Shown in pieces: positions 5,621 through 60,600 of a stretch of DNA of 64,000 nucleotides (within the stretch, counting starts at the first letter, position 1; every line of letters starts with the position of its first letter). Position numbers and translations under genes: made by a program. A model generated the notes under the pieces. That model was given only the letters and a program-made list of their open reading frames with translations, did not search any database and was not told the origin of the DNA. This DNA comes from Hyalangium gracile (lineage in GTDB: Bacteria; Myxococcota; Myxococcia; Myxococcales; Myxococcaceae): positions 36,337-100,336 of the forward strand of contig NZ_JAHXBG010000030.1 of assembly GCF_020103725.1 (NCBI RefSeq), read 5' to 3'.

Positions 5621-6448
5621 GTGCTGGGGCTTCAACGCCTGAAGGGAGGGTCTATCAACTTGCGTGGAGCCAGGATCCGCCCTGCCTTGCAGCTCATGGC
5701 TCCCGTGCTCTTGCTTTCCCTGTCATGCACTGGCGCCAGGCTCTACTACGTGCACAGTGAGGTGCCCAAGCTGGAGGGAAAGTGGGCTGTGGGCCCTGGA
5801 CCCTGGCCAGCAGTGCCTGCGGTGATCTCGGACGGGTCCTCTGTCCCCGATGCCTTGGTGCTGTCGGCTCTCAAGGCGTTGATGGCGCTACCTGGGGCAG
5901 CGGATTCCTGCGATGCGTGGGGGCAGCCACGTCCCGACGCGGCCGAGTACTGCATTGCAACCTATCGGACACCGCGGGACTGGCGTGTGACGTGGCCCAT
6001 CCGGAATCTGGTGGATGCGGCGAGCGCGTGCAGACCTCCTTTCGGCGGTGTCGAAGATGCGGACTTTGGACGAGACCTGCCCGTGTTTGGCTATGCCCAC
6101 AACCACACCTGCGGACTCTTCGCGAGCAGCACGGACCTGATGAGGTTTCCTGCCGCGAGAGCTCCGACAGGGGCATGGGTGGTCGTAGGGTATGCGACGG
6201 CTCCCAGCGGCGGGTTGGCCCGTGATTCACAAGGGGAGCTGATTCCAGCATGGCATTGGCTCGCCACGGGACATGCGACCGAGCCTCGGTTCTACAAGTG
6301 GAACCCAGCGGGCGAAGTCTTCAAATGGAGCGAGAACGGGGGACGTTGGGAGTTTCAGGCGATCTGCAAACCTGAGTCGTCCACTCTCCTCGAGGCTGAT
6401 CGCGCCCTCGCGCCAAACTGCACTCCTGCGTTGACAGACTGGTACTGA
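5621..6448 (+). CDS. hypothetical lipoprotein or secreted protein
   Basis: Signal peptide with an LSLSC lipobox-like motif; Trp-rich; no recognisable domain; slightly lower GC than the flanks. Confidence 0.45.
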   Translation: MLGLQRLKGGSINLRGARIRPALQLMAPVLLLSLSCTGARLYYVHSEVPKLEGKWAVGPGPWPAVPAVISDGSSVPDALVLSALKALMALPGAADSCDAWGQPRPDAAEYCIATYRTPRDWRVTWPIRNLVDAASACRPPFGGVEDADFGRDLPVFGYAHNHTCGLFASSTDLMRFPAARAPTGAWVVVGYATAPSGGLARDSQGELIPAWHWLATGHATEPRFYKWNPAGEVFKWSENGGRWEFQAICKPESSTLLEADRALAPNCTPALTDWY

Positions 6449-6461
6449 GTCAGGACTTCTT

Positions 6462-6998
6462 GTGGGTGGTTCTATGTTGAGACCTCATCTTTTGATTCTG
6501 CTCGGTTCGCTCTTGAGGGATGGCGGAGTGGGCGCGCCGCAACCCAGCTCCACGGGACCGGACGCAGGGATGATGGCGGCTCCAGCTCGCCCGTCAGAGG
6601 CTGATGCAGGGGTTGGGGCAGACCCGGCGCTTGCCTCGGAACGAGATGGTGGGGCTGTTGTGCGCAAGCCTGTCATCGCGGGAGGCATTCGTTGGCCAAC
6701 CGAAGTGCGGACTCTGGCCACGTTGGACGGGCCCGCTGTCCTTGCTGCTCATGCCGCGATGCAGCAGGTGCTGACACGTCTCGCGAAGAATTACTCGGGG
6801 GAGTGTGAGACCTCTGCCAAGGCCATGGAGGTGATCGTCGGCGAGGGTGACGGAATGTATATCGTCCGTATCAATCAACGCGTCGACAAGTGCGGATGGG
6901 TGGCTCCCCCCGGATTCAGCACCGAGACCGACTGGTTCGAGCTGTATGCCGTCTCTCCAGAAGGGAAAGTCCTCGCGCGCTATCCCTATCACCCCTGA
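6462..6998 (+). CDS. hypothetical secreted protein
   Basis: Hydrophobic N-terminal signal (LLILLGSLL); no recognisable domain. Confidence 0.4.
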   Translation: MGGSMLRPHLLILLGSLLRDGGVGAPQPSSTGPDAGMMAAPARPSEADAGVGADPALASERDGGAVVRKPVIAGGIRWPTEVRTLATLDGPAVLAAHAAMQQVLTRLAKNYSGECETSAKAMEVIVGEGDGMYIVRINQRVDKCGWVAPPGFSTETDWFELYAVSPEGKVLARYPYHP

Positions 6999-7014: not shown

Positions 7015-8376
7015 TCACTTCGACTTGAGCTGCGCGGCAGGGGGGCTCGCGGGCTGGATGGGCTGCGGCTCTCCTCCCAGCCTCCAGGCCAGGAGCCCAC
7101 CTCCGGCAAGAAGCAGCCCCACGCAGGCAAGGGCCCACGCCAGCCCGGTCTTCTGGTGCGGCCTGAAGACCGCTCGGGCGGGCAGGGTCTCCGCCTCGGA
7201 GTCGACGGACTGGGTCGGTCTCGGAGCGGGCCTCGGCTTGGGCGCCGTGCTGACCCCGAGCTTCCCGGCGGACTCCACCTTCGTGATGGCCAGCCCCGGC
7301 CGAGGCGGCGGAGACATGCGCCGCGGTATCGGAACGAGCACCTCCCGGGGCGCCGGCGGAGGCGTGACCCTGGGCGCCGGAGGAAGCGTCTCCGTCTCGC
7401 TGGGCGGCGGAGGCGGTGTGGCGCGCGGCGGCTCGCTCGGTGGGGCCGGCGGCTCCTCCACCTTCACCTCGAGCATCTTCGACACGAAGTTCGCGGTCCG
7501 GTGCACGCCCACCTTCTTCCCGGTGGACAGCAGGTAGTCCTCCAGATCCGACAGGAACGCGCGGCAGTCCGCGTAGCGCTGATCCCGATCCTTGGCGAGC
7601 GCACGATCCAGGATCCGCGCCACCGCCTGGGGCAGATCCGGCCGCCGCTGCAACACCGGCACGGGCGGCTCGAAGAGGATGGCCTGCGCCATGCTGGCTT
7701 CCGTCGTCGCGTTGAACGGCTTGCGGCCGGTGAGCAGCTCGTAGAACACGACGCCCAGCGAGTACACGTCCACCCGCAGGTCCAGCGGCATGGCCCGGAT
7801 CTGCTCGGGCGCCATGTACGAGAGCTTGCCCTTGATGACCCCGGTCAGCGTCCGGTGGCTCTGGTTGGCCGCCTTGGCGATGCCGAAGTCCACGATCTTC
7901 AGCCCGCCCTCGCGCGACAGCAGGATGTTGTCCAGGCTCACGTCCCGGTGGATGAGCTCCAGCGGCTGCCCCGTCTCCGGCTCCCGGAGCGCATGGGCGA
8001 AGGCCAGCCCCTCGCACGCCATCGCGATCAGCTTCGCGCACAGCACCGGCGACAGCGCCATCTTCAGCGAGTTCACCCGCTTCATGAGCGCGCGCAGGTT
8101 CAGCCCGTCGATGTACTCCATCGCCAGGTAGTACGTGCCGTCGGCCTGGCCGAAGTCGAAGATCTGGACGATGTGCGGGTGATTGAGGCGAGCCGCCAGC
8201 CGGGCCTCGGTGAAGAACATCTCCACGAAGCCCCGGTCCTCCGCCAGGTGCGGCAGGACGCGCTTGACGACCACCTCTTTCTCGAACCCCATGGGGCCCG
8301 CGACCTTGGCCAGGTAGACCTCGGCCATACCCCCGGTGGCGAGCTTGCGGACGAGCTGGTACTTGCCGACTTGCAT
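7015..8376 (-). CDS. Ser/Thr protein kinase, membrane-anchored
   Basis: Start at MQVGKYQLV. Hanks motifs [21 protein letters not shown] and APE; Pro-rich linker; C-terminal TM helix. Confidence 0.85.
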
Positions 8377-8525
8377 CCCGGGCAACCTCGATCCGGGATC
8401 GCCAGACCGCGACCCCCGCTCACGCACGAACCGTGTGCACTGTCCGTGTCAGCACAGGACGAGTGACTCCGGCCGGACGGATCCGGCTGGCTCATCCTGG
8501 CCGTGCCATTTCTCGAGAAACGGCA

Positions 8526-9572
8526 TCAACTCCGCAGGCCCACCGACGGCATCGCTCCGGCGAGCGCGCGCATGGCCGCGGCCATCGCCTCGACCGTCAG
8601 CGACGTCTCCGAGGCGCCCATGCGGAGCGCCGCCTCGGGCATGTTGGAGACGACACATGTCTCCGGGTGCTGCACGAGCGCCATGCCCCCGGCGCGACGG
8701 ATGGCCAGCAGCCCCGAGGCGCCATCCATGCCCATGCCCGTGAGCACCGCGCCCCCGGCCCGGCTCCCATGGGCTCGGGCCAGCGACATCAGCAGCGTGT
8801 CTCCCACCGAGACGTGGCGCCCGTGGATCGGCTCCACCAGCAGATCTCCCGAGCTGAGCACCTGCAGCTGGTGCCCATCCGGAGGCAGGTACACGTGGCC
8901 CGCCTGCGGCTTCAGGCCCGTGCGCGCCAGCACCAGCTCCAGCGGAGAGGCCGCGGCCAGCCACTGGCGCAGGCCCGAGGTGAAGCCCACCGAGACGTGC
9001 TGGGCGATGAACACCGGATAGGGGAGGCTCGGGGGCAGCAGCGACAGCAGCATCGCCAGCGCGGGCGGCCCTCCGGTCGCGGCCACCAGTCCGAAACCGT
9101 TCACCCGCCCGCTCCGCAGGGCAGGGGGAGGCACCGGCTGGCCGATGAGCGGCCTGCGTGGGGACAGCGGTATCTCCGCCATGGCGCGGATGGTGTTGAT
9201 GAGCTGCGAGCCGAAGCCCGACAGGCCCCCGTCCTTGCCCGGCGTCGGCTTGGGCATCACCTCGAGCGCCCCGGCCTGCAGCGCCTTGAAGGACATCTCC
9301 GCGTCCATCGCGCCGGAGATGACGAGGATGCGGCTGGGCGCCTCGGCCATGATGCGCTCGGTGGCGTCGATGCCGTCCATCCGCGGCATCCGCACATCGA
9401 GCGTCACCACATCCGGCCGGAGCGACTGGGCCAGCGCCACCGCCTCTTTTCCATCGTTGGCGGTGCCGACGATGCGGATGTCCGGGGCCGGGGCCAGCAG
9501 TCCGGTGAACATCCGCAGGATGGTGGGAGAGTCATCAGCAAGGAGGACCTGGATCGGCTTGTTCATGTGCAC
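8526..9572 (-). CDS. CheB-like response regulator / methylesterase, paralog 1
   Basis: REC domain (DDSPT...TLDVRMPRMDG) followed by a CheB methylesterase domain (IAQHVS, GMGMDG). The position equivalent to the catalytic Ser reads AATGG. Confidence 0.85.
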   Translation of the reverse strand: MHMNKPIQVLLADDSPTILRMFTGLLAPAPDIRIVGTANDGKEAVALAQSLRPDVVTLDVRMPRMDGIDATERIMAEAPSRILVISGAMDAEMSFKALQAGALEVMPKPTPGKDGGLSGFGSQLINTIRAMAEIPLSPRRPLIGQPVPPPALRSGRVNGFGLVAATGGPPALAMLLSLLPPSLPYPVFIAQHVSVGFTSGLRQWLAAASPLELVLARTGLKPQAGHVYLPPDGHQLQVLSSGDLLVEPIHGRHVSVGDTLLMSLARAHGSRAGGAVLTGMGMDGASGLLAIRRAGGMALVQHPETCVVSNMPEAALRMGASETSLTVEAMAAAMRALAGAMPSVGLRS

Positions 9573-9728
9573 CTCGGGGGACCGACGAGTGCGCAGCGGA
9601 GAGGGTACGGAGCCTACTTGATGGATTCTACCCGCTGTCCAGCCACAAGCCTACGCCTCGGGTAGTATTGCGTCCCGCCCGGAGGCCACGAGGGTGTCCT
9701 CCGGGGAACGCCGAGGCGAGGGTTCTCC

Positions 9729-10778
9729 TCAGTTCTTGACGGTGGGAGTCGCCGGAGCCGCGCCGGAGAGCGCGCGCATGGCCGAGGCCAGGCCCTCCAG
9801 GGACAGCAGCGTCTCGGTGGCGCCGTTGCGCGTCGCCGCCTCGGGCATGCCGGGGACGACGCAGCTCTCCGGCGTCTGCGCGAAGGTGATGCCGCCCGCG
9901 CGGCGGATGGCCAGCAGCCCCGAGGCCCCATCCGAGCCCATGCCCGTGAGCACCGCGCCGCCGGCCCGGTTGCCGTAGGCGAGCGCCAGCGAGGCCAGCA
10001 GCGTGTCCCCGAGCGCCGTCTTCGCCGCCGGGATGGGCTCCACCAGCAGCTCCCCGCCCAGCGTCACCTGCAACTGGTGCCCGTCCGGCGGCAGGTACAC
10101 GTGGCCCGCCTGCGGACGGACGCCCGTCTGCGCCACCTCGAGCCGCAGCGTGGAGGCCGCGCCCAGCCACTGGCACAGGCCCGCGGTGAAGCCGTCCGAC
10201 ACGTGCTGGGCGATGAAGATGGGGTAGGGGAGCTTCGGAGGCAGCAGCGACAGCAGCAGGCAGAGCGCGGGCGGACCTCCCGTGGAGGCCACCAGCCCGA
10301 AGCCGTTGACCCGTCCCTGGGGCGCCACCGTTGGCGCCGCCGCCGCCGGCTGGGTGGGAGGCGTGGGCCGGCGCTCGGCCAGCGGCAGCTCCGCCATGGT
10401 GCGGATGATGTGGATCAGCTTCACGCCGAAGTTGGCCAGGCCCTCCAGGCCCGGCCGCGGCTTGGGCATCACCTCGAGCGCCCCGGCCTGCAGCGCCTTG
10501 AAGGACATCTCCGCATCCACCGCGCCGGAGATGACGAGGATGCGGCTGGGCGCCTCGCTCATGATGCGCGAGCTGGCCTCGATGCCATCCATCCGCGGCA
10601 TGCGGACATCCAGGGTGATGACATCCGGGTGGAGCGTGCGCGCCAGCTCCAGGGCCTCAGCCCCATCCTTCGCGGTGCCGATGACCTGGATGTCCGGAGC
10701 CGAAGACAGGAGCGCCGAGTACATCTTCAGCATGGTGGGCGAGTCGTCCGCGATGAGGACTCGGATGGTGGAGCTCAT
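9729..10778 (-). CDS. CheB-like response regulator / methylesterase, paralog 2
   Basis: REC plus methylesterase domain with the Ser, His and Asp positions intact (ASTGG, AQHVS, GMGSDG). Confidence 0.85.
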   Translation of the reverse strand: MSSTIRVLIADDSPTMLKMYSALLSSAPDIQVIGTAKDGAEALELARTLHPDVITLDVRMPRMDGIEASSRIMSEAPSRILVISGAVDAEMSFKALQAGALEVMPKPRPGLEGLANFGVKLIHIIRTMAELPLAERRPTPPTQPAAAAPTVAPQGRVNGFGLVASTGGPPALCLLLSLLPPKLPYPIFIAQHVSDGFTAGLCQWLGAASTLRLEVAQTGVRPQAGHVYLPPDGHQLQVTLGGELLVEPIPAAKTALGDTLLASLALAYGNRAGGAVLTGMGSDGASGLLAIRRAGGITFAQTPESCVVPGMPEAATRNGATETLLSLEGLASAMRALSGAAPATPTVKN

Positions 10779-10857
10779 GTACGCCTCGACGAGAGGGAAC
10801 GAGTGTGGCCAGCGGACCGTCTCATGCCTTGAACGGTCCGTCCTGGCCAGAGCAGAG

Positions 10858-11895
10858 TCAGATGCCCGGGGGAGAGCCCGGCGGGGGCATGCCCTCGAGC
10901 GAGCGGAGAATGGTGGCCAGCGCCTCCGGAGACACGGAGTGCTCGGTGGCCTTGTTGCGCAGCGCCGCCTCCGGCATGCCCGCCACCAGACACGTCTGCG
11001 GATCCTGCGCGAAGGTGAGACCGCCGGCGCGCTTGATGGCCATCAGGCCCACCGCGCCCTCCTCGCCCATGCCGCTGAGCACCGCGCCCGCCGCGTGGGC
11101 GCCATAGGCGCGTGACAGGGACGCCAGGAGCAGATCCCCCGAGGGGAAGGTGCTGCCGGAGGCCTTCTCGATGACGATCTCCCCCTGCATGCCCACCCTC
11201 AGGTGGTGGCCGTCCGGGGCCAGGTAGACGGTGCCGGCGCGGGGCTGCTCGGAGGCGCGGGCGATCTCCACCGGCAGCGGCGACAGCGAGGACAGCCAGC
11301 GGTGCAGGCCCACGGTGAAGCCCGGGGTGATGTGCTGGGCGATGAAGAGCGGGTAGGGCAGGCTGCGCGGCAGCAGCCACAGCAGCGAGGCCAGCGCCGT
11401 GGGGCCGCCGATGGACGAGGCCAGCGCGAAGCCCGCCACGCGCGCGTTCTCCGGCAGCTTGGGCGCGGTGGAGCGGCCCTCGTGGCGCTGGGTGACGAGC
11501 GGCACCTCCGCCAGCAGGCGGATGGCCGACAGCAGCCGCACGCCGAAGCGCGCCACGTCCTCGGGCGCGCCCTGCGGCTTGGCGATCACCTCCAGCGCTC
11601 CGGCCTGCAGCGCGCGGAAGGACAGGTCCGTGTCCGGCGCGCCGGACACCATGAGGATGCGGCAGGGCGTCTCCGCCATGATGCGCTCGGTGGCCCCCAG
11701 GCCATCCATGCCGGGCATCTGCACGTCCAGGGTGATGACGTCTGGCTTGAGCGAGCGCGCCAGCTTCACCGCCTCCTCTCCGTCGCGTGCGGTCCCCACC
11801 ACGGTCACGTCCGGTTGGGCCGACAGCAACCGCGTGAGGACCTGCAGCATCGTGGGGGAATCGTCGGTGAGAAGGACTTGAATCGGCTTGCTCAT
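10858..11895 (-). CDS. CheB-like response regulator / methylesterase, paralog 3
   Basis: Start at MSKPIQVLL. REC plus methylesterase domain with ASSIGG, AQHIT and GMGEEG (Asp position replaced by Glu). Confidence 0.8.
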   Translation of the reverse strand: MSKPIQVLLTDDSPTMLQVLTRLLSAQPDVTVVGTARDGEEAVKLARSLKPDVITLDVQMPGMDGLGATERIMAETPCRILMVSGAPDTDLSFRALQAGALEVIAKPQGAPEDVARFGVRLLSAIRLLAEVPLVTQRHEGRSTAPKLPENARVAGFALASSIGGPTALASLLWLLPRSLPYPLFIAQHITPGFTVGLHRWLSSLSPLPVEIARASEQPRAGTVYLAPDGHHLRVGMQGEIVIEKASGSTFPSGDLLLASLSRAYGAHAAGAVLSGMGEEGAVGLMAIKRAGGLTFAQDPQTCLVAGMPEAALRNKATEHSVSPEALATILRSLEGMPPPGSPPGI

Positions 11896-11988
11896 TCGGT
11901 TCTCCGAACTCCAAACTCCAGGTGGGTTTCTACCCCAGGGGTGGGCCGCTCGCCTACGACTCACCGTGTAGCAGTGTATCAAGCGCGC

Positions 11989-14226
11989 TCAGCCCGCCTT
12001 GCGCTTCTTTTCTCGTTTGGACCTGGCCTCGGGAGGCTTGGGAGTCGGGGTTTCCCGGGAGTCTTCCACGGGTGAGGGGAGCGCGGGAGGGGGGGCGGGC
12101 AGGGGCGTACCGTCTGTAGGAGGAGCCTCCACCGCCTGTGGCTCCGCTGGGAGCGCCGGCAGGCGGATGACGAAGGCGCACCCCTCTCCGGGCTTGCTGT
12201 GCACGGAGATGCTGCCCCCGTGGTTCTTGACGATGCGCTGACAGATGGCCAGCCCCAGGCCGGTGCCCTTCTGTTTGGTGGTGAAGAAGGGCACGAAGAT
12301 GTGCTGTTGCTGGTCCAACGGAATGCCGGGCCCGGTGTCGGACACGTGGACCTCGACGAACTCGTTGAGGTTGCCCCGGAACTCGCTGAAGCGGTCCTGC
12401 TTCACGGTGCCCACGGTGATGCGGCCGGGCACCTCGCCGATGGCCTGCACGGCGTTCTGCACCAGGTTGATGAGCACCTGCTTGAGCTGCTCGGCGTCCG
12501 CGTCCACCCGTGGCACGGCCAGGTCCATCTGCACCGCCAGCTCGATCTGCCTGGGCACGTCGTTCTGGATGAGGCGCATGGTGCGCGTCACCACCTCGTT
12601 GAGGTCCGTGGGCCCGAAGCTCTGCTTGAGCGGGCGCGCGTAGTCGAGGAACGCCGTCACCACGCCGTTGAGGCGGTTCACCTCCTCGACGATGACGCCC
12701 AGGAACTCGCCGTCCTCGCCCGGCAGCCGCTTGGGGTCCAGGCACTGCGCCGCGCCCTTGATGGCGCCCAGCGGGTTGCGGATCTCGTGCGCCAGGCCCG
12801 CCGCCATCTCGCCCAGGGCCGCCAGGCGGTCGCGCTCGCGGATCTTCTCGTACAGCTTGGAGTTCTCCAGCACCGTGGCCACGCGCTCGGCCACCGAGAG
12901 GATGAGGGCGATCTCGTCCGAGGCGTACGCCTCCGGCACGCGCTCGTCCCACAGGTTCAGGAAGCCGATGACGCGATCGTTGCCCACCAGCGGCACGGAG
13001 ATGCCGGACTTCATCTGCTTGAGCGCCGAGCGCGTGTCCTGCAGGCGCTTGATCTCGTCGCGGAAGCGCTTGCCCTCGGTGGCCTGCACCCGCAGGGCGG
13101 TGAGCCGGTGCTCCACGTTCTCCAGCAGCACGGCCTTCTGCCCGCTGGCGGCCGCCAGCAGCAGTCCACGCGCCGCGGCCGTGTCCAGGAAGCCCTCGGG
13201 CGGAGGGCCACGCGAGTCCAGCAGCCGGTAGCCGGGCCTGTCCTCGGCCAGCATGTACACGGAGGTGTGGGTGACACGGCCCGTCTCGTGGAGCGCGTCC
13301 AGCAGCAGCCGCGTGACTTCGGAGATGTCGATGACGGTGGCCATGCGCGCCCGGAGCGCTCCCAGCACGCGCAGCAGCTCGAAGCGCTCGCGGAAGAAGA
13401 TCGCCACCACGCGCTCCTCCACCTTCACCCTCAGCGGCTCCATGAGGATGATGATGACGAAGGCGGCCACCACCGTGGTGAAGACGTAGAGCCCCGTCTT
13501 CTCCTTCACCCAGACGGTGAGCACCATGAAGACGGCCGCCAGGATGGAGGCCAGCACCGTCTGCGAGGCGATCTTCCCCAGCAGCTCGTGCAGGTCCATC
13601 AGCCGCAGCCGCAGCAGCGTCTCCCGGAGGAAGAAGAGGTAGAGCGTGGAGAAGATGGGCCCCAGCGGCAGCAGGGGGATGTCGTAGCGCCGGCCGATCA
13701 AGTCCAGCGCCGTCAGCAGGATGGAGGCCCCCGCGCCGATGGCCAGGTACATGAGCCGCAGCCGCTCGATGCGCGACTCCTCGGTGCGAACCCGGTTCAG
13801 CAGCAGGCTCACCGAGGTGAGCAGGGTGACCAGCACCCACATGCCGGTGGCCACCCGCGCCCAGCCCGTCTGCGCCAGCGGCGTCACCGCGACGGCCAGC
13901 CCGAGCACGCTCGACAGCACGCCCAGCCGCCGGCCGAGCAGGTGCGTGCCCTTGCTGACGCCCAGGAACTCCAGGAAGAAGGAGACCGCCGTGCCGGGCA
14001 CCAGGGAGGCGAGCAGGATGGTGGCGCCCACGGCGATTCTGGACAGCCAGCCCGGCTCGGGGAAGATGCCCGCGAAGAAGAGTGCGAGGTAGTACCCCGC
14101 CACCGTAAGGGCGAAGACGGAATACAGCGTCCCCACCCGGGGCCTGCCTGGCCGGAGGAGCATCGACAGCGCAAGCGCCAGGCCGATGATCGACGCGAAC
14201 AGCGCGCTGAGGGTCCGGATGTCCAT
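11989..14226 (-). CDS. sensor histidine kinase: multi-TM N-terminal domain, GAF, HisKA, HATPase_c, Pro-rich tail
   Basis: About seven N-terminal hydrophobic helices; GAF-like segment; H-box LAHEIRNPL; N, G1 and G2 boxes; C-terminal Pro/Ala-rich tail. Confidence 0.85.
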   Translation of the reverse strand: MDIRTLSALFASIIGLALALSMLLRPGRPRVGTLYSVFALTVAGYYLALFFAGIFPEPGWLSRIAVGATILLASLVPGTAVSFFLEFLGVSKGTHLLGRRLGVLSSVLGLAVAVTPLAQTGWARVATGMWVLVTLLTSVSLLLNRVRTEESRIERLRLMYLAIGAGASILLTALDLIGRRYDIPLLPLGPIFSTLYLFFLRETLLRLRLMDLHELLGKIASQTVLASILAAVFMVLTVWVKEKTGLYVFTTVVAAFVIIILMEPLRVKVEERVVAIFFRERFELLRVLGALRARMATVIDISEVTRLLLDALHETGRVTHTSVYMLAEDRPGYRLLDSRGPPPEGFLDTAAARGLLLAAASGQKAVLLENVEHRLTALRVQATEGKRFRDEIKRLQDTRSALKQMKSGISVPLVGNDRVIGFLNLWDERVPEAYASDEIALILSVAERVATVLENSKLYEKIRERDRLAALGEMAAGLAHEIRNPLGAIKGAAQCLDPKRLPGEDGEFLGVIVEEVNRLNGVVTAFLDYARPLKQSFGPTDLNEVVTRTMRLIQNDVPRQIELAVQMDLAVPRVDADAEQLKQVLINLVQNAVQAIGEVPGRITVGTVKQDRFSEFRGNLNEFVEVHVSDTGPGIPLDQQQHIFVPFFTTKQKGTGLGLAICQRIVKNHGGSISVHSKPGEGCAFVIRLPALPAEPQAVEAPPTDGTPLPAPPPALPSPVEDSRETPTPKPPEARSKREKKRKAG

Positions 14227-14334
14227 GTTCGAGCGGACAGTCTAACCTGTGTTCACGTCCGGAAATTTTTAGACTGTCTCCCGTTGTCCTCGGGCGTGCC
14301 CGAGCGCATCCACCAGGGCCAACCGCCCGCCCCC

Positions 14335-16749
14335 ATGAAATCCGCCCTTTCGCTGATTGCCCTCGTCTCCTTCGCCACGCTGGCCTCCGCGCAGCAGGTG
14401 GCCTCCGAGCCTACCCACGCGCCGCAGCCCCGGACCGATGGCGCCCCTACCGAGGCCCAGCTCACGCCTCCGCCGGACGCGGAGAAGGAGCCGCTGCCCG
14501 ACGGCTATGTGGAGATCTTCAACCCCGCCTTCCCGTCGCCCGTGGTGGAGGCGCCTCGCAAGCCCGCCCCCGTCGTGAAGGTGGAGCTGGGCAAGGCCTA
14601 CGGCCTGGAGGATCTGACGCCCTACTTCGCCGAGGGGAAGAAGAAGGAGGCCAAGGCCGCCTTCGATCGCGGCTTCTACCTCAAGGCCCGCGAGCTGCTG
14701 CAGGGCGAGGGGGACTCGCCGCCGGTGCGCTACCTGCGCGCGCTGAGCGCCGTGCGCGCCGGGGATGACACCCGCGCGGCCGCGGAGATGGCGGCGCTGG
14801 CGGACGACTACCCGGCCCTGAAGGACAGGTGCCTGACGCACGCGGGCGTGGCGCTGGAGGATCTCGGCCGGTACGACGAGGCGGCGAAGCTGCTCGGCGC
14901 GGTGTCGGAGGACTCGAAGATGTACGTGGACGCCCGCCTGACGCTGGGCCGCGTGCTGCGCAAGAAGAAGGACTACGACGGGGCCATCGCCGCGCTCTCG
15001 CCGCTGGCGAACCGCCCCGCGCCGCTGTTCGGCCGCAACGTGGGCGCCGAGGCCCTCATCGGCATCGCCGACATCGCCGCGGAGAAGAAGGACAAGACGC
15101 GCGAGCGCGAGGCGCTGTGGCGGCTGTGGTCGCTGTACCCGCTCTCTCCGCTGACGAAGCAGGCGGACCGTCGCCTCAAGGGCATGAAGCCGCCGGTGGA
15201 GGCCCAGGTGGCGCGCGCCGAGCAGCTCATCGAGCTGCACCGCAACAAGCAGGGGCTCACGGTGCTGGAGCCGCTGCTGCCCACGCTGAAGCTGCCCGAG
15301 CCCATCGCCTGCCGCGCGCACTTCGCCTACGGCAAGGGCCAGCGCAAGGAGCGAAACCACACCAAGGCCATCGCCACGCTCACCCCGGTGGTGGAGCAGT
15401 GCCAGGACGCGGACCTGCTGCCGCGCGCCATGTACGTGCTGGGCTCCTCGCGCTCCATCGTGGACCAGAAGCGCGGGACGCAGACGTACGAGCGGCTCGC
15501 CAAGGAGTTCCCCGGCCACTCCTTCGCCGACGACGCGCTCTTCTACGCGGCGGACCTGTACGTGAAGACGGGCCAGCCGGAGCAGGCCGCGCTGCGGCTC
15601 GAGGAGCTGGCGAAGAACTACCCGCAGGGAGACTTCCTGGGCGAGGCGCTCTTCAAGTCCTTCTGGATCGCGCGCACCTCGAAGGCGGCCGATGGCGGGC
15701 TGGCGATCCTGGACCTGATCGAGCAGCGCTTCGCCGACGCGGACGAGACGTATGACGTGGAGCGGGCGCGCTACTGGCGGGCTCGGACGCTGCAGGAGCG
15801 CGGCCAGCTGGAGGGCGCGGAGGCCATCTTCGAGAAGCTCGCGCTGGAGCACCCGGCCACCTACTACGGGCTGATGGCGCGCGCGCAGCTGGGCGAGGTG
15901 GACAAGGAGCGCCTGGAGCGCATCGCGCCGCAGCTGGTGTTCACCGCGGAGACGGCCAGCCCGTGGCCCATGCACACCGGGCCCATCATGGAGAAGGATC
16001 CGCACTTCCTGGCCGGCGTGGAGCTGCTGCGCATGGGCTTCCCGGAGGCCGTGTCCTCCGAGCTGCTGGCCGTCAACCGCAACGGCCTGCCCGCCGAGTC
16101 CGCACGGCTGATCGTCCACCTGCTGTCCATGGCCGGGGACGAGCGCGCCGCGCACGCCGTGGCCCGCGTGGCGCTGCGTCGCGACTTGAGCGGTCGCATC
16201 ACCCCGCGCACCCGTCCGGTGTGGGAGATCGCCTATCCGAACGCGTACCGGGAGATGATCGAGAAGCACACCAAGGACGCCGGGGTGGAGCCGGATCTGC
16301 TCCAGGCGCTGATGCGCGAGGAGAGCGCGCTGGATCCCAAGGCGCTGTCCTGGGCCGGAGCGCTGGGGCTCACCCAGCTCATGCCGGCCACGGCGAAGTC
16401 GGTGGCCGCGCAGCTGAAGATCAAGCGCTTCCGCGTCGAGTCCCTGCTGGAGCCGGACCTCAACATCCGCCTGGGCGCGCACTACCTGGGAGAGCTCATC
16501 CGGAAGTTCGACGGCAACACCCCGTACGCGGTGGGCAGCTACAACGCGGGCTCCGGCGCCATCAACCGCTGGCGCTCCGAGCGCAAGGGCATGCCGCTGG
16601 ATGCGTGGGTGGAGGAGGTGCCGATCGCCGAGACGCGCGGCTACATCAAGCGCGTGCTGCGCTCCTACAACACCTACCAGCTCCTCTATGGTCGGACCGG
16701 CAAGGTCCCCATGGTCAAGTCCGCCGGGCTGTTGCCGGCGAAGCGCTGA
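14335..16749 (+). CDS. soluble lytic murein transglycosylase (Slt-like; TPR superhelix plus SLT domain)
   Basis: Signal peptide MKSALSLIALVSFATLASA; TPR-like superhelical region; C-terminal SLT catalytic domain (EESALDPKALSWAGALGLTQLMP...YNAGSG). Confidence 0.85.
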   Translation: MKSALSLIALVSFATLASAQQVASEPTHAPQPRTDGAPTEAQLTPPPDAEKEPLPDGYVEIFNPAFPSPVVEAPRKPAPVVKVELGKAYGLEDLTPYFAEGKKKEAKAAFDRGFYLKARELLQGEGDSPPVRYLRALSAVRAGDDTRAAAEMAALADDYPALKDRCLTHAGVALEDLGRYDEAAKLLGAVSEDSKMYVDARLTLGRVLRKKKDYDGAIAALSPLANRPAPLFGRNVGAEALIGIADIAAEKKDKTREREALWRLWSLYPLSPLTKQADRRLKGMKPPVEAQVARAEQLIELHRNKQGLTVLEPLLPTLKLPEPIACRAHFAYGKGQRKERNHTKAIATLTPVVEQCQDADLLPRAMYVLGSSRSIVDQKRGTQTYERLAKEFPGHSFADDALFYAADLYVKTGQPEQAALRLEELAKNYPQGDFLGEALFKSFWIARTSKAADGGLAILDLIEQRFADADETYDVERARYWRARTLQERGQLEGAEAIFEKLALEHPATYYGLMARAQLGEVDKERLERIAPQLVFTAETASPWPMHTGPIMEKDPHFLAGVELLRMGFPEAVSSELLAVNRNGLPAESARLIVHLLSMAGDERAAHAVARVALRRDLSGRITPRTRPVWEIAYPNAYREMIEKHTKDAGVEPDLLQALMREESALDPKALSWAGALGLTQLMPATAKSVAAQLKIKRFRVESLLEPDLNIRLGAHYLGELIRKFDGNTPYAVGSYNAGSGAINRWRSERKGMPLDAWVEEVPIAETRGYIKRVLRSYNTYQLLYGRTGKVPMVKSAGLLPAKR

Positions 16750-19008: not shown

Positions 19009-20682
19009 GTGAGAGAGGCAAACCGTCTGCTGTTGTTGGGCGCGCTCGCGGTGGCGTTCAGCATCGTGGGGTGTGACTGCGGGGGAGATGATCCGCCGCC
19101 CGAAGAGACCCCCGATGGAGGGAGCCAGACGGATGGAGGCGTGCTCCCGGTCCCCGACGCGGGGCCCGGCTCGGAGTGTCTGCTCGAGGGGGCCACGTGC
19201 AGCCGCACCTCCGGCAACCAGTGCTGTACCGGCGTGTGCGGGGACGACGGGCGCTGTCCGCCTCCCAATATCCTGTGCCGCAGCGCGGGCGAGGCCTGCC
19301 AGACGGGCGGCGACTGCTGCACCAACATCTGTGAGAACGGCACCTGCGCCACCAACCTGTGCCGCGACGTGGGCCAGGCGTGCACCGGCGCCGAGCAGTG
19401 CTGCACCAAGGTCTGCACCAACGGCACGTGCGCGGACATCCCCGGCAGCTCCTCCCAGTGCAAGGTGCTGGGCCAGGCCTGCGGGGCGGACTCCGACTGC
19501 TGCTCCACCAACTGCCAGGGCGGCCTGTGCACCCGCGCCTATACCTGCAAGGGCTACGGGGACGTGTGCCAGACCAACGCGGAGTGCTGCGGCAACGCGT
19601 GCTCGGCGCCTCCGGGCGGCGTGGGCCGCTGCGAGTTCGTCACCGGCGGTGGCGGTGGCGGGTGCCGGCAGGACGGCAACCCGTGCTCGGATCCGTCCAC
19701 GTGCTGCTCGCGCACCTGCGTGGATCTGGGCTACGGCGCAACGGTCTGCCAGCCCGTGGGTGGCTGCAAGCTCACCGGCAACTTTTGCGGCGACAACGAC
19801 GACTGCTGCGGCGGCGGCGTGAACCCCAACGGCTCGGTGAGGTGCGCCGGCGGCCGGTGCGACAACGGCAGCGCCTGCAACGGCGTGGGCAACATCTGTG
19901 GCTCCGGCAAGCTGCCTGACGGTGGCACCACGGACATCAACGCCTCGCAGAACTGCTGCGACGGCAAGAAGGCCGTGTGCAAGGTGGACTCGTCCGGCGT
20001 GCCGCGCTGCTTCGGCGGCGGCCAGATCACGGGCTGCAACGAGGGCTACACCGGGACGCCGCCGTGCTGCATCCAGGACAACCAGACGTGCCAGTTCTCC
20101 GATCAGTGCTGCAACGGCGCCCTGTGCCTGCCCAACGGCAGCGGGACGCTGTCCTGCCAGCGGCCAACGTGCTCTCCGCTGGGCTCGTCCTGCCAGAAGG
20201 GCGCGGACGGGGGCTCGGCGTGCTGCGCCGGCACGGAGTGCCGGGCGACGGACGAGGTCAACTTCGCCTGCCAGGCGCCCAGGCCGCCCACCGGGGGCAC
20301 GGATGGCGGCACGGCCGGCCCGGATGGCGGCTCGGGGACGCCGGACGCGGGGCCGACGTGCAAGGCCAACGAGACGGCCTGCACCTCGCCCTCCCAGTGC
20401 TGCTCGGGCATCTGCACGGGCGGTCTGTGCAAGCCGCCCTCCCTGTGCCAGCCGCAGAGCGGGGCCTGCACCTCGGGGGCGGACTGCTGCCAGGGCCTGC
20501 GCTGCGAGGTGCCCAACGGGGCCACCACGGGCTCCTGCCAGCCGGGCGCTACCTGCTCGGCCAGCGGCCAGGCGTGCTCCACCACCAGCCCCTGCTGCGC
20601 CGGGCTGAACTGCCTGGGAGAGAACACCGGCAATACGTGTAATGGCTCGGAGCCCTGTGTCTGCACGGTGATCATCCTGTAG
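19009..20682 (+). CDS. Cys-rich repeat lipoprotein (about 12 tandem six-cysteine modules)
   Basis: Lipobox FSIVGC; repeated pattern C-x3-G-x2-C-x5-6-CC-x3-C-x3-5-C (for example CRSAGEACQTGGDCCTNICENGTC). Confidence 0.75.
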   Translation: MREANRLLLLGALAVAFSIVGCDCGGDDPPPEETPDGGSQTDGGVLPVPDAGPGSECLLEGATCSRTSGNQCCTGVCGDDGRCPPPNILCRSAGEACQTGGDCCTNICENGTCATNLCRDVGQACTGAEQCCTKVCTNGTCADIPGSSSQCKVLGQACGADSDCCSTNCQGGLCTRAYTCKGYGDVCQTNAECCGNACSAPPGGVGRCEFVTGGGGGGCRQDGNPCSDPSTCCSRTCVDLGYGATVCQPVGGCKLTGNFCGDNDDCCGGGVNPNGSVRCAGGRCDNGSACNGVGNICGSGKLPDGGTTDINASQNCCDGKKAVCKVDSSGVPRCFGGGQITGCNEGYTGTPPCCIQDNQTCQFSDQCCNGALCLPNGSGTLSCQRPTCSPLGSSCQKGADGGSACCAGTECRATDEVNFACQAPRPPTGGTDGGTAGPDGGSGTPDAGPTCKANETACTSPSQCCSGICTGGLCKPPSLCQPQSGACTSGADCCQGLRCEVPNGATTGSCQPGATCSASGQACSTTSPCCAGLNCLGENTGNTCNGSEPCVCTVIIL

Positions 20683-26343: not shown

Positions 26344-27888
26344 TTGACCCCCAGTATCGCCGAACCAACGCGGCGTGTCATGATGATCCCCGCAGCCGTG
26401 ATGCGGAGGATCTCGATGAGAAGGATGCTCGTCCCGGGGCTGTTCGACGACTATGCCGTCGCGCCCGGGACCTTCGATGAGCTGTTCGAGGCCAGTGGTA
26501 CCGCCCGCTCCCACTTCCTCCGCATGTTCGCCATGCTGGCGGGGCGCAGCGCCGAGGAGTTCGCCCGCATCCAGGCGCTGGCCGAGCGGGCCCTGCTGAA
26601 CCAGGGCGTCACCTTCTCGGTGTACTCGGACTCGCGGGGCACCGAGAAGATCTTCCCCTTCTGCCTCATCCCCCGCATCGTCTCGAGCGTGGACTGGATG
26701 CGTCTGGAGCGCGGGCTGGAGCAGCGCACCCGGGCGCTGGGCCTCTTCCTGGATGACGTCTACGGCCCGCAGCGGATGCTCGCGGAGCGGCCCGAGCTGC
26801 GAGACATCGTCCTGGGCACGAAGCTGTACCTGCCCCAGCTGCGCCACGTGCGGCCCCCAGGCGGCGTGCGCATCCACGTGGCGGGCATCGATCTCATCCG
26901 GGACGAGCGCGGCACCTTCCGGGTGCTCGAGGACAACCTGCGCACCCCGTCGGGTGTCTCCTACGTGATGGAGAACCGCATCATCTCCAAGCGGGTGATG
27001 CCGGAGATCTTCGAGCAGGCGCGGATCCGCCAGGTGGACCACTACCCCGCGCGGCTGGCGGAGACGCTGCGCGCCGTCTCGCCCGAGGATCCCGAGCACT
27101 CCACGCTGGTGGTGCTCACGCCCGGGCCCTACAACTCCGCCTACTTCGAGCACTCGTTCCTGGCGCGCACCATGGGCGTGGAGCTGGTGCAGCCGGCCGA
27201 TCTCTTCGTGGAGCGCGATCAGGTGTTCGTGCGCACCACCCGGGGGCCGCGCCGCGTGCACGTCATCTACCGGCGCATCGATGACGCCTTCCTGGATCCC
27301 GAGGCCTTCCGCCCGGACAGCCTGCTGGGCGTGCGCGGGCTGATGCGGGCGTACGCCGCGGGCAACGTGGCGCTGGCCAACGCGCCGGGCAACGGGGTGG
27401 CGGACGACAAGGCCGTGTACGCCTTCGTGCCGGAGATGATCCGCTTCTACCTCTCCGAGGAGCCGCTGCTGGAGCAGGTGCCCACCTACGTCTGCGCGCG
27501 CAGGCAGGAGCGCGACTACGTGGTGGATCACCTGGAGCAACTGGTGGTGAAGGCGGTGGACGAGGCCGGTGGCTACGGGATGCTGATGGGCCCGCAGTCC
27601 ACGCCCGAGGCGCGCGAGGAGTTCCGCGCCCGCATCCTCGCCGAGCCGCGCAAGTACGTGGCCCAGCCGCGTGTGGAGCTGTCCACCTGTCCCACGTGGG
27701 ACGCGGGGAAGGGCAGGGTGGCGCCGCGCCGGGTGGATCTGCGGCCCTACATCCTCACCGGGCCGCAGGGCCCGTGGGTGCTCCCCGGCGGGCTGAGCCG
27801 GGTGGCGCTGCGCGAGGGCTCATACGTCGTGAACTCCAGCCAGGGGGGTGGCTCGAAGGACACCTGGGTGCAGCGGGAGGTCGCATGA
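26344..27888 (+). CDS. circularly permuted type-2 ATP-grasp protein (COG2308/DUF404 family)
   Basis: Family-typical sequence (VTFSVYSD...FPFCLIPRIV; NAPGNGVADDKAVYAFVPEMIRFYL). Confidence 0.8.
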   Translation: MTPSIAEPTRRVMMIPAAVMRRISMRRMLVPGLFDDYAVAPGTFDELFEASGTARSHFLRMFAMLAGRSAEEFARIQALAERALLNQGVTFSVYSDSRGTEKIFPFCLIPRIVSSVDWMRLERGLEQRTRALGLFLDDVYGPQRMLAERPELRDIVLGTKLYLPQLRHVRPPGGVRIHVAGIDLIRDERGTFRVLEDNLRTPSGVSYVMENRIISKRVMPEIFEQARIRQVDHYPARLAETLRAVSPEDPEHSTLVVLTPGPYNSAYFEHSFLARTMGVELVQPADLFVERDQVFVRTTRGPRRVHVIYRRIDDAFLDPEAFRPDSLLGVRGLMRAYAAGNVALANAPGNGVADDKAVYAFVPEMIRFYLSEEPLLEQVPTYVCARRQERDYVVDHLEQLVVKAVDEAGGYGMLMGPQSTPEAREEFRARILAEPRKYVAQPRVELSTCPTWDAGKGRVAPRRVDLRPYILTGPQGPWVLPGGLSRVALREGSYVVNSSQGGGSKDTWVQREVA

Positions 27889-28868
27889 TCGCGCGAGTGG
27901 CGGAGCTTTGCTTCTGGCTCGGGCGCTACCTGGAGCGCGCCGAGAGCACGGCCCGGGTGCTCCAGGTGACGGGGACGCTGGCGCTGGATGCGGGGCTGGC
28001 CCCCGAGCAGTGCTGGCGGCCGGTGCTGGCCGTCTTCGGCGAGCGGCTGCGCTTCGCCTCGCGAGGCGCCAGCGCGGCCGAGGACGACGGCGAGCAGGTC
28101 CAGCGCTTCATGGTCTGGGATGAGGACAACCCCTCCAGCATCCAGGCCTCGGTGGCCGCGGCCCGGGAGAACGCGCGCGCCATCCGCGAGGTGGTGAGCA
28201 TCGAGTGCTGGGAGGTCATCAACGAGCTGTTCCTGTGGATGCGCGGCGAGGAGGCGAAGGAGGAGTACGCCCACCACCGCTACGGCTTCTACCGGCACGT
28301 CCGCCGCTCGGTGCAGCTGTGCCTGGGGCTGTTGCGCAGCACCATGCTGCACGACACGCCCCTGGACTTCATCTGGACGGGCGTGCTGCTGGAGCGGGCG
28401 GGGCAGACGGCGCGCGTGCTGGATGTGCACCACCACGCCTTCTCGCAGCTTCCGAGCGGCCACCAGGTGGTGGAGACGTCGCTCTGGCTCTCGCTGCTGC
28501 GGGCGTGCTCGGGCTTCGAGCCCTTCATGAAGCGCCACCAGGGCCGCGTCACGGGCAACGCGGTGGCGGCGTTCCTGCTCTTCGAGCAGGAGTTCCCGCG
28601 CTCGCTGCGCTACTGCCTGAAGTCGGCCCACAAGTACCTGATCGAGTTCCACCCGCCTGGCACGCAGGGGCTGCCCGGCGCCGAGACGGTGGCCCTGAGC
28701 ACGCGGCTGCTGGAGCGGCTCCAGCCGACGGCGCTCTCGGCTCCCGGAGCCACCGTGCACGGGCTGCTCACACAGGTGGTCGAGGACACCGGCGCGCTCT
28801 GTGACATTCTGGCCGCTGAGTTCTTCGGGGCGGCAAGAGCGCTGGGCTCACAGGCGATGGCCCAGTAG
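27885..28868 (+). CDS. alpha-E domain protein (COG2307/DUF403 family)
   Basis: MIARVAELCFWLGRYLERAE N-terminus typical of the alpha-E family; ATGA overlap with the upstream ATP-grasp gene. Confidence 0.75.
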   Translation: MIARVAELCFWLGRYLERAESTARVLQVTGTLALDAGLAPEQCWRPVLAVFGERLRFASRGASAAEDDGEQVQRFMVWDEDNPSSIQASVAAARENARAIREVVSIECWEVINELFLWMRGEEAKEEYAHHRYGFYRHVRRSVQLCLGLLRSTMLHDTPLDFIWTGVLLERAGQTARVLDVHHHAFSQLPSGHQVVETSLWLSLLRACSGFEPFMKRHQGRVTGNAVAAFLLFEQEFPRSLRYCLKSAHKYLIEFHPPGTQGLPGAETVALSTRLLERLQPTALSAPGATVHGLLTQVVEDTGALCDILAAEFFGAARALGSQAMAQ

Positions 28869-28880
28869 AGTCCCGCGGCC

Positions 28881-58100: not shown

Positions 58101-58208
58101 CTCTGCGGCTGCCACTTTCGCCTGCTGTAGGGGCGTGGCAGACCCCTGGGGCTGAGCGCTGATCGCTAGGAGAGTTAGCACACGGACGAATAGGAGGGAC
58201 GATGCCAT
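55110..58208 (-). CDS. large membrane-anchored TPR-repeat protein
   Basis: Signal peptide (MASSLLFVRVLTLLAISAQ), internal TM helix (VLVLLGVIVLLLLVSLLL), many TPR-like helical repeats. GC lower than the genome backbone. Confidence 0.65.
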   Translation of the reverse strand: MASSLLFVRVLTLLAISAQPQGSATPLQQAKVAAAEGRLFVPGGALDIVGSAQPQTDELLQYKEALEELRSGEMRFRYIYTTTDGTGTAELLAHLKASKKLENQPELLAHVYRLQRWQADLEALRKAASEALSRGDLAQAMLLYEQAQVQPLAQTALTPKLKEEIEFAAAAYNTARATYAAGMTDAWLKGFSEVRAAAAAGRMWTDTGKDGKPVDGASELLQKTLTATMPTPGNAPARLILGRYQDALAEIRRQENLIKLAYGAHQSIAEMLTTLRGSSKLKDFPELIAYVYHLEKWSTDYNALRAKVKAAVDSRNFEEAKKLYAEMEPLAQGVPTLIEEIASGRAMIEEQDHLILSLWHWLKEVVAPFKTPVLVLLGVIVLLLLVSLLLQCKAWIQRLFLKRREDSELVIYDLSDEARPGASELQMARLKVCFQEVALQPTVPVTGHEANLGEALPQWDSTAYESLKDFAQYLGDEQKVTVGPLSVPAKALWNILAQLAFKQRRYQLTGVVSVEGGNIRVFIRKFDNATGKEIGRWTAIATGITAAATNDAFRQLALKLAHQKFPADKQMTKSPDAFAAYYQALLVMDGVLPQDDRAQALKKARDLLQAALAHDPRMAHAKLKLAIVMRKLREPEVARALLEELPEGQLSDEKKYHSALLQAQGRWLAALRGAHKVFKELAAHEGRLALDAKACLLEVCGKMRTGKSTRHQLTAEESADLDAQIRELEAFFEKSTPPKGVTEKEFAPVRGYALYVMGRRRLDQAELMEFSSEQLQEARSKLENELPSLSPEKLDSRSREALQRVVRKDSEALMQRALTYLPDLIAAHTCLARVYRQANWPRWEEYAERALKRASQINPDDPLVNEEYGFYFASREPTDHDQAADYFKKAAERRPSSRFEWGKILARKNEPMVGIERMWEAIRMFDGNVQPSYLGDLVQCTLQAGLALRKAAESGVAGGQPSLTSVEDPAKALLEQAREAQNWLAIREEKLKKDNETRQSPTVAKLIEDYARVRQEVTERIQQVAPWPSPHA

Positions 58209-58301
58209 GCTCTGCTCCACCTTCCGGAAGTGCGGCGCATCATGGGCCCTGGTGCCCTTCCCCGAAAGAGGAGACGAGCAGCTAGGGGCCAGACGATTTC
58301 C

Positions 58302-60251: not shown

Positions 60252-60600
60252 GTGAGTCGGGCAGCATCCACCTGGAGCCCTCGGACGTCGAGCACTTCTA
60301 GCAAGGCTGCTCGCTCGCCCTGTTAGGGGCGTGTCGGGGTATTGCCTGAGATTGGCTCCTACATACGATCCATAGCGGTATGCAAAGATCGCACCACTCA
60401 TCCTATAGTGGGTTGTTGGGATTCCCTGACAGACTCCTAGACGAAAGTGGCGCTGGTGGACAGGTGGGAACTATGGACAACTCGGAAGGGTGCCGTGGAA
60501 AGCCACTGAATTCGATGGGGTGGGTACGGACATGCGATCTTCTCCACCAAATCGCTCGGTGATTCCCGGCCGGGTGGCAGTAAGCGAGACGAGGGGGACC

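Follow-up and report, generated by a model that had tools for sequence, protein, structure and literature searches.

CheB-like response regulators next to a conventional sensor kinase in Hyalangium and Stigmatella

CheB is the textbook case of a response regulator that serves just one kinase (CheA) and acts on just one class of substrates (the chemoreceptors). What, then, is the role of three CheB-like genes that lie directly behind a membrane-bound sensor histidine kinase (HK)? This arrangement occurs in a 64-kb stretch of the Hyalangium gracile genome (about 70% G+C), which we analyzed over its whole length and call the window. At 7015-14226, Pfam matches and G+C content by codon position identify five successive genes on the minus strand: the HK, three genes with REC and CheB methylesterase domains (copies A, B, and C), and a Ser/Thr protein kinase (STK). 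Our tentative answer is that a branch of CheB-type receivers was added to a pre-existing HK pathway in the Stigmatella/Hyalangium lineage, with A as an enzyme and with B and C turning non-catalytic. We base this proposal on gene content, residue states, phylogenetic distribution, synteny, and selection.

The conserved core of the locus

The five genes, and the neighbor that is divergent from the HK, are:

11989..14226, minus strand: sensor histidine kinase (HK), 745 amino acids (aa), with GAF_2 (34.5 bits), HisKA (55.7 bits), and HATPase_c (96.0 bits) domains by Pfam
10858..11895, minus strand: CheB-like copy A, 345 aa, with REC and CheB_methylest domains by Pfam
9729..10778, minus strand: CheB-like copy B, 349 aa, with REC and CheB_methylest domains by Pfam
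8526..9572, minus strand: CheB-like copy C, 346-348 aa (start probably at 9566), with REC and CheB_methylest domains by Pfam
7015..8427, minus strand: Ser/Thr protein kinase (STK), 453-470 aa (start probably at 8376), with a Pkinase domain (138.7 bits) by Pfam
14284..16749, plus strand: protein with TPR and SLT lytic transglycosylase domains by Pfam, divergent from the HK

A preliminary description of this DNA had proposed the same gene content, and Pfam and the reading frames favored by G+C at third codon positions (GC3) confirm all five genes with their domains. That description depended on the methylesterase domains being those of CheB. In A, B, and C, the CheB_methylest profile (PF01339) is covered in full, with scores of 154-163 bits (the cut-off is 24), and Response_reg scores 78-83 bits. 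A plus-strand open reading frame (ORF) at 12199-16749 overlaps the HK, but GC3 analysis indicates that it is genuine only from about 14284, and the minus-strand frames are backed. Alignments of orthologues place the start of gene A at 11895 (MSKPIQ..., the same in all orthologues) instead of at the TTG at 11982 that had been given earlier, and they are also the source of the corrected starts for C and for the STK.

The preliminary description also stated that the window has no gene for a methyl-accepting chemotaxis protein (MCP) or for CheR, CheA, or CheW. This is correct: we found no MCPsignal, CheR, CheW, or CheA/Hpt domains in the plausible ORFs of the whole 64 kb, and domains of these types are also absent from the 8-10 kb flanks of six related loci. 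The MCP-free span around the cluster is about 7 kb on one side and about 50 kb on the other. Across the window, then, there is no chemotaxis cluster alongside these genes.

Which of the five genes belong together? In 7 of 7 contexts (H. gracile, H. versicolor, H. rubrum, Stigmatella aurantiaca, S. ashevillena, and the metagenome contigs L090 and L091), the HK and copy A are direct neighbors with the same orientation, separated by 68-93 nucleotides (nt). The two Stigmatella species have a single REC-CheB gene, 68 nt downstream of the HK. H. versicolor, H. rubrum, L090, and L091 have three REC-CheB genes downstream of the HK. The pairing of a CheB-type regulator with a kinase other than CheA, to which the preliminary description had pointed, is thus conserved in these seven genomes or contigs of Hyalangium and Stigmatella. 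More broadly, A-type proteins are found only in Stigmatella (as a single copy), Hyalangium, and related metagenome-assembled genomes, and B and C are restricted to Hyalangium-like genomes. A pattern search of metagenomes for GMGEEGAVGL identified two short loci with A-B(-C) arrays, both of which end just upstream of A, before the position of the HK. (Exact-sequence look-ups of the window's copy B, and of the related protein P0184 that is described below, gave nothing, and genomic context was taken from orthologues.)

Downstream of the CheB genes, the slot is variable. It can hold a Zn-ribbon gene, a transposase, a class I methyltransferase, an AHH/Imm11 pair, or various STKs. (The Zn-ribbon gene follows the HK or a CheB in Corallococcus, Stigmatella, and H. 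rubrum, and we found no remnant of it in the window.) The STK of the window, which has a Pro-rich linker and one C-terminal transmembrane helix (residues 429-447 in a transmembrane scan), has an orthologue only in H. versicolor (85% identity). H. rubrum has an STK in the same position that is just 24% identical, and L090, L091, and Stigmatella have none. So, the STK is an incidental and variable neighbor and not a conserved member of the cluster. Because the downstream genes are reshuffled while the HK-A pair persists, what is conserved is the pair of HK and A, to which Hyalangium added B and C, and not the set of five.

The spacers give a similar picture. The intergenic gaps, in order from the HK to the STK, are 93, 79, 156, and 98-149 nt. 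The HK-A spacer (93 nt; 11896..11988, minus strand) has no stable hairpin (fold z-score of +0.27). It contains the element GGTAGAAAC, about 35 nt before the start of A, and a GGAG ribosome-binding site; both are conserved in the 68-93 nt spacers of Hyalangium and Stigmatella. A similar element, GGGTAGAATC, lies in the B-C spacer (9573-9728, minus strand), and both elements may be -10-like promoter elements. G+C-rich hairpins are present in the spacers after A (z = -2.05) and after C (z = -2.45), the spacer after B has a long stem, and there are two strong hairpins in the 149-nt gap that precedes the STK. (Scans for sigma-70 promoters and for U-tract terminators gave nothing informative in this 70% G+C genome.) Co-transcription of the HK and A is plausible. 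The five-gene operon that was originally proposed is unproven: the gaps are indeed short, but the set is not conserved as five, and since a hairpin follows each of the three CheB-like genes, transcription of all five as one unit is only putative.

The kinase and the origin of its CheB neighbors

A Hyalangium gracile protein matches the HK at 100% identity. The HK has about eight hydrophobic or transmembrane segments (residues 6-262), a GAF domain (about 300-455), a HisKA domain with the H-box HEIRNPL, and an HATPase_c domain, with no receiver domain. Its core is nearest to kinases of the AtoS/ZraS/NtrB type. Orthologues that are 66-90% identical are found in Hyalangium, Stigmatella, Archangium, Cystobacter, Melittangium, Corallococcus, Myxococcus, Pyxidicoccus, and Aggregicoccus. 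In Corallococcus coralloides, Myxococcus fulvus, and Cystobacter fuscus, where the orthologues are 76-78% identical, there is no response regulator next to the HK. As a two-component pair, then, the HK and A show conserved same-strand adjacency, but the regulator is not present wherever the kinase occurs.

The helices of the kinase's dimerization and histidine phosphotransfer (DHp) domain, and much of the remaining core, are essentially invariant across orthologues. In the alignment, no DHp substitution separates the genera with the CheB genes from those without. Since the DHp helices are essentially unchanged across genera, the CheB genes were probably added as a branch to an older kinase pathway. 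This implies that the HK would have kept an ancestral, unlinked partner, and that the CheB receivers, if they are substrates, would be an added branch.

As for what the HK senses, the only contextual clue is a hint from the lytic transglycosylase gene. The HK is divergent from this TPR-SLT gene in 9 of the 9 myxobacterial contexts that we read (with about 60-110 nt between them), and the TPR-SLT gene is the sole neighbor of the HK that is kept in every genus examined. This pairing hints at shared regulation or at a cell-wall-related role for the HK. The membrane domain has no match in Pfam or NCBIfam. In an AlphaFold 2 model (pLDDT of 70), the N-terminal 290 aa form a bundle that is entirely helical, and comparing it to the PDB gave no significant match, just a generic likeness to helical bundles (G-protein-coupled receptors, with TM-scores of about 0.4 and E > 0.001).

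Where did the CheB genes come from? In neighbor-joining trees (one alignment, 200 bootstraps), the A sequences form one group (200/200), B and C group together (200/200), and A, B, and C form a clade with two other proteins, P0184 from H. gracile and P0185 from H. versicolor (200/200). The placement of P0184/P0185 as the sister of B+C is a weak grouping (147/200). P0185 (L088 10001-11041) lies within a true che cluster, with CheY, REC-CheW, CheW, CheA-REC, CheB, and a dCache MCP. Similarly, P0219, a relative at 51% identity, sits between a CheA-CheW-REC protein and an MCP. Because the clade includes the CheB of a che cluster, the kinase-linked CheBs descend from receptor-modifying enzymes. (As a separate observation, the acidic D-D pair of the receiver is replaced by D-G in P0185 and by E-G in P0184, and the kinase-linked paralogues keep D-D. 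The receivers of P0184 and P0185 may be poorly phosphorylatable.)

The tree also changes how we view the three tandem paralogues of the preliminary description. There are three REC-CheB genes in tandem, but they are not equivalent duplicates: A is old and slowly evolving, while B and C share 68% identity with one another and 55% with A. Judging from the tree, B and C did not arise simply as recent tandem duplicates of A.

The receivers of A, B, and C have a shortened beta4-alpha4 loop and an alpha-1 helix that is unlike those of the other CheBs that we sampled. A change of FGMP to AGMP, PGMP, or SNMP also marks the clade off from the other sampled CheBs. (We considered using the cut-offs of the NCBIfam CheB models, which are 293 and 342 bits, as a criterion for membership. 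A, B, and C score 243-273 bits, but the cut-offs are not discriminating because bona fide CheBs from myxobacterial che clusters, at 275-290 bits, also score below them. We dropped this criterion.)

Could the position of these genes be meaningless? A, B, and C might be ordinary adaptation enzymes that are misplaced and are fed by the CheA of distant che clusters. The HK is conserved without CheB genes in Myxococcus, Corallococcus, and Cystobacter, its DHp domain did not change when the CheB genes arrived, and the hairpins and the -10-like motifs suggest separate transcription units. The nearest relative of the clade is a che-cluster CheB, and Hyalangium has several CheBs of the che type. All of this would be expected of misplaced enzymes. 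What this explanation does not account for is the persistence of the HK-A adjacency in all seven contexts despite the reshuffling downstream, with a spacer that is free of hairpins, or the distinct alpha-1 helix and shortened loop of the receivers. We consider it somewhat unlikely.

Active sites and possible roles of the three copies

We compared the three copies to canonical CheB proteins (PDB:1A2O from Salmonella and PDB:6YMZ from Pectobacterium). They share the two-domain architecture and the length, and the end-to-end alignment of copy B has E = 3e-50. In the Pectobacterium protein, the catalytic triad is S165-H191-D287 and the phospho-acceptor is D56 (PMC7698151). The acceptor Asp, the acidic pair, and the Lys of the receiver (DD/D/K) are intact in all of the A, B, and C sequences, including the orthologues. 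In contrast, A, B, and C follow a HisKA-type kinase and are not encoded with CheA, CheW, CheR, or an MCP; and, besides the shorter loop and the altered FGMP, two of the three copies have a changed triad.

In copy A, the triad is Ser-His-Glu (ASSIGGP, AQHI, and GMGEEGA), with Glu in place of the Asp. The same residues are found in all A-type sequences down to 74% identity. Copy B of H. gracile has the full canonical triad, Ser-His-Asp (VASTGGP, AQHV, and GMGSDGA), as do the B copies of H. versicolor and H. minutum. In H. rubrum, in L090, and in several metagenome clusters, copy B has lost the Ser and is Ala-His-Asp. In copy C, the catalytic Ser is replaced by Ala (VAATGGP), the His and the Asp are retained, and the GMP motif is NMP. 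C-type sequences are mostly Ala-His-Asp, with Ser-His-Asp in a few. (In one cluster, P0138, the triad is Ala-Ser-Glu.) About 100 other CheBs with a readable motif are all Ser-His-Asp, and among the three copies in H. gracile, only B matches that pattern.

Copy A is probably an active esterase or deamidase whose predicted substrates are chemoreceptors that are encoded elsewhere. It is 88-97% identical among the orthologues of named species, and the Stigmatella gene is 89% identical. The alpha-1 helix of its receiver is identical in the aligned orthologues from named species and differs in P0183, a metagenome relative at 77% identity. The preliminary description had suggested a different substrate as one possibility. 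We do not think that one is required, as true che clusters with MCPs are found elsewhere in Hyalangium. Also, at least two additional CheBs are encoded on a separate contig of H. gracile, which implies that chemoreceptor substrates exist in this genome.

Still, the substrate could be something other than a chemoreceptor, such as the HK itself or another signaling protein. Among the matches listed for copy A, we examined a sample of 63 distant loci with a CheB catalytic domain (no locus from Hyalangium or Stigmatella is included). In about 5 of the 63, an MCP, CheA, or CheW is encoded no more than 10 kb away. Over 50 of the loci (L013-L087), from many phyla, have a common four-gene cassette without an MCP. 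The cassette encodes a CHASE3 or 4HB(+HAMP)-GAF-HisKA-HATPase-3xREC hybrid kinase, CheR, a receiver-less CheB, and a REC-HisKA-HATPase protein (as defined by L017 5528-11773 and L077 5287-12419). This is the context of the BmsA cluster of Pseudomonas alkylphenolica (Lee et al. 2016, cited in PMC8175716). So, CheB domains are not confined to chemoreceptor clusters, although the preliminary description had called them normally dedicated to chemoreceptors, and their linkage to non-CheA kinases is not new per se. What is new is the version in Hyalangium, which has receivers on the CheBs and no CheR.

How similar are the two arrangements? Both link a domain of the CheB family to a GAF-containing, non-CheA kinase of the HisKA type, with no MCP, CheA, or CheW nearby, and a non-chemoreceptor substrate is suspected for the BmsA-type cassettes. 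But those cassettes have a receiver-less CheB, a CheR that is always adjacent, and hybrid kinases with three receivers. In the Hyalangium locus, the CheBs have receivers and CheR is missing; the kinase is polytopic and not a hybrid. We also considered whether the HK might itself be a BmsA-type kinase and rejected this, as the similarity is confined to the generic kinase core (27-28% identity).

Another system to consider is Che3 of Rhodospirillum centenum, in which CheS3 is a second, non-CheA kinase in a Che-like pathway (PMC3868531). Like the Hyalangium locus, it combines a classical kinase and CheB-family proteins in one module, with an output other than swimming. However, the Che3 cluster brings together an MCP, CheW, CheA, CheR, and CheB, and the MCP is the assumed target of CheB3, while in Hyalangium only the kinase and the CheBs are linked. 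Our literature searches did not find a paper on kinase-linked REC-CheB proteins or on the CheBs of Hyalangium or Stigmatella.

For a non-chemoreceptor substrate, then, one can cite the MCP-free surroundings of the cluster, the many loci that tie CheB and CheR to non-CheA kinases without an MCP, CheA, or CheW, and the altered triad and FGMP motif of this clade. There is also a precedent for methylation of a sensor kinase (PMC4574943). The CheR-like protein RsbM is reported to methylate the kinase RsbK. Nevertheless, we think that this explanation is unlikely to be correct. No CheR or other evident paired methyltransferase is conserved with the locus (a class I methyltransferase is adjacent only in L090 and L091). 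The consensus for MCP methylation sites is absent from the HK, the STK, and the CheBs; its sole match among the neighbors, in an ABC-F protein, is probably due to chance. The resemblance of the HK to BmsA-type kinases is limited to the generic core, and the clade contains the CheB of a real che cluster.

We turn to B and C. Between H. gracile and H. rubrum, copy A is 91% identical, whereas B and C are 72-75% identical, so B and C diverge faster. We computed the ratio of nonsynonymous to synonymous substitution rates (dN/dS) by the method of Nei and Gojobori. For A, dN/dS is 0.03-0.06 in the receiver, 0.04-0.18 in the catalytic domain, and 0.06-0.17 overall; the corresponding values are 0.02-0.35, 0.11-0.40, and 0.12-0.42 for B and 0.08-0.28, 0.25-0.37, and 0.19-0.33 for C, and because dS is compressed by the extreme GC3, all of these values are comparable only among themselves. 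Purifying selection acts on all three copies, and it is relaxed for B and C; this also holds for the catalytic domain of C, which lacks the nucleophile.

Although their faster evolution and the repeated loss of the nucleophile (up to Ala-Ser-Glu in P0138) might suggest that B and C are functionless duplicates on the way to becoming pseudogenes, this is very improbable, as their frames are full length and intact in every genome and metagenome contig where we saw them, the key residues of their receivers are invariant, and dN/dS (0.12-0.42 overall and 0.25-0.40 in the catalytic domains) indicates purifying selection. Given a lost nucleophile, a phosphorylatable receiver, and purifying selection, copy C (and copy B in some other species) most likely has a non-catalytic role. 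These copies seem to be drifting toward pseudo-enzyme receivers that would act as sinks or as competitors. The suggestion of a phosphate sink or of branched signaling, which was already made in the preliminary description, thus gains support from the Ala in C and in some B copies, from the intact receivers, and from the invariant DHp domain.

In the multi-CheY chemotaxis systems of Sinorhizobium and Rhodobacter, extra receivers drain phosphate from the kinase; these sinks are single-domain CheYs that are fed by CheA. By analogy, a sink is a plausible role for C, which is an extra receiver paralogue whose output domain lacks the nucleophile. The difference is that the candidates in Hyalangium are full-length CheB-like proteins in which the dead catalytic domain is still under selection.

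Our proposal of an added receiver branch would work as follows. An otherwise orphan membrane GAF kinase of the Cystobacterineae would have gained copy A directly downstream in the common ancestor of Stigmatella and Hyalangium, and Hyalangium would subsequently have gained the paralogues B and C. A cue sensed by the membrane or GAF domain would lead to autophosphorylation of the HK, which would then phosphorylate the receiver of A in addition to its ancestral partner, which is unlinked. Phosphorylation would free the predicted esterase or deamidase domain of A (Ser-His-Glu) to act on the chemoreceptors of che clusters elsewhere in the genome, and a signal that is not chemotactic would thereby be coupled to the adaptation state of the receptors. 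With its full triad, copy B of H. gracile may act like A. Copy C, and B in other species, would be non-catalytic, either as a phosphate sink that shapes the kinetics of phosphorylated A or as a phosphorylation-gated competitor at the substrate.

Several points weigh against this proposal. First, the HK is equally conserved in genera without the CheB genes, so its adjacency to A could be historical only. Second, the clade that shares this adjacency is young (dS of about 0.45). Third, the hairpins after A, B, and C and the possible -10-like elements in the spacers possibly weaken the transcriptional coupling. Fourth, that a Ser-His-Glu triad is active within a CheB fold is an assumption of ours for the predicted enzyme A. 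Other caveats are that the trees come from a single alignment and a single method and that the dN/dS values are affected by the compression of dS. Finally, we infer phosphotransfer from the HK to A, B, or C, the substrate, and the role as a sink or competitor, so the proposal should not be taken as a firm model.

Surroundings and significance

Beyond the HK, the TPR-SLT gene is followed by genes for SelA and for an HNH protein. On the other flank, Pfam identifies an ABC-F ATPase, a second STK, and a Peptidase_Mx protein, and there are two ORFs without a family match.

We also noticed a few features elsewhere in the window. Two ORFs at 5621-6998 (plus strand), which encode 275 aa and 178 aa, have a lower G+C content, N-termini that resemble signal peptides, and no match in Pfam or NCBIfam. 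In L090 and L091, this slot contains an S-adenosylmethionine (SAM) methyltransferase, and in H. versicolor, it contains an AHH toxin/Imm11 pair. Since different genes occupy it, the insertion site is variable. At 30903-33098 (plus strand) is a 731-aa homologue of the eukaryotic Major Vault Protein, with Vault repeats and MVP_shoulder (E down to 2e-45). It lies directly 3' of a set of genes with circularly permuted ATP-grasp, Alpha-E, and GATase-transglutaminase domains (26344-30641, plus strand). Between the HNH gene and a ParA-like gene is a 538-aa ORF (19066-20682, plus strand) that has no Pfam match and has higher G+C at second than at first codon positions (GC2 > GC1). In the same place, H. 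versicolor and L090 have unannotated genes of 553 aa and 548 aa, respectively. Last, the region from 57600 to 64000 has G+C of 0.58-0.62, versus about 0.70 elsewhere, and its ORFs, among them one of 699 aa (58302-60401, minus strand), have no Pfam match. This region may be recently acquired DNA.

Overall, the kinase-CheB locus is real and is conserved in a narrow lineage. It looks like a lineage-specific side branch of two-component signaling and not like an ordinary chemotaxis locus. If these CheBs are fed only by CheA, then the locus is merely a case of odd gene placement. If the conserved association of an ordinary sensor kinase with CheBs that carry receivers is functional, it would be a natural second input into receptor adaptation. 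And since some of the paralogues have lost the nucleophile and kept the phospho-acceptor, these genes would also illustrate the evolution of an enzyme into a pseudoenzyme within a receiver family. The simplest version, with one kinase and one CheB, is in Stigmatella aurantiaca, which is a cultivated, fruiting myxobacterium with a complete genome.

A broader and more doubtful idea is that a lineage of CheB was rewired from CheA to a conventional sensor kinase. Copy A would then be a kinase-controlled enzyme, and the copies with Ala would read or block methyl-glutamate or glutamine sites under the control of phosphorylation, or else serve as phosphate sinks, so that a non-chemotactic kinase would control the modification of receptors or of another substrate. 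If so, these myxobacteria would have a kind of cross-pathway control of adaptation that has not been described before.

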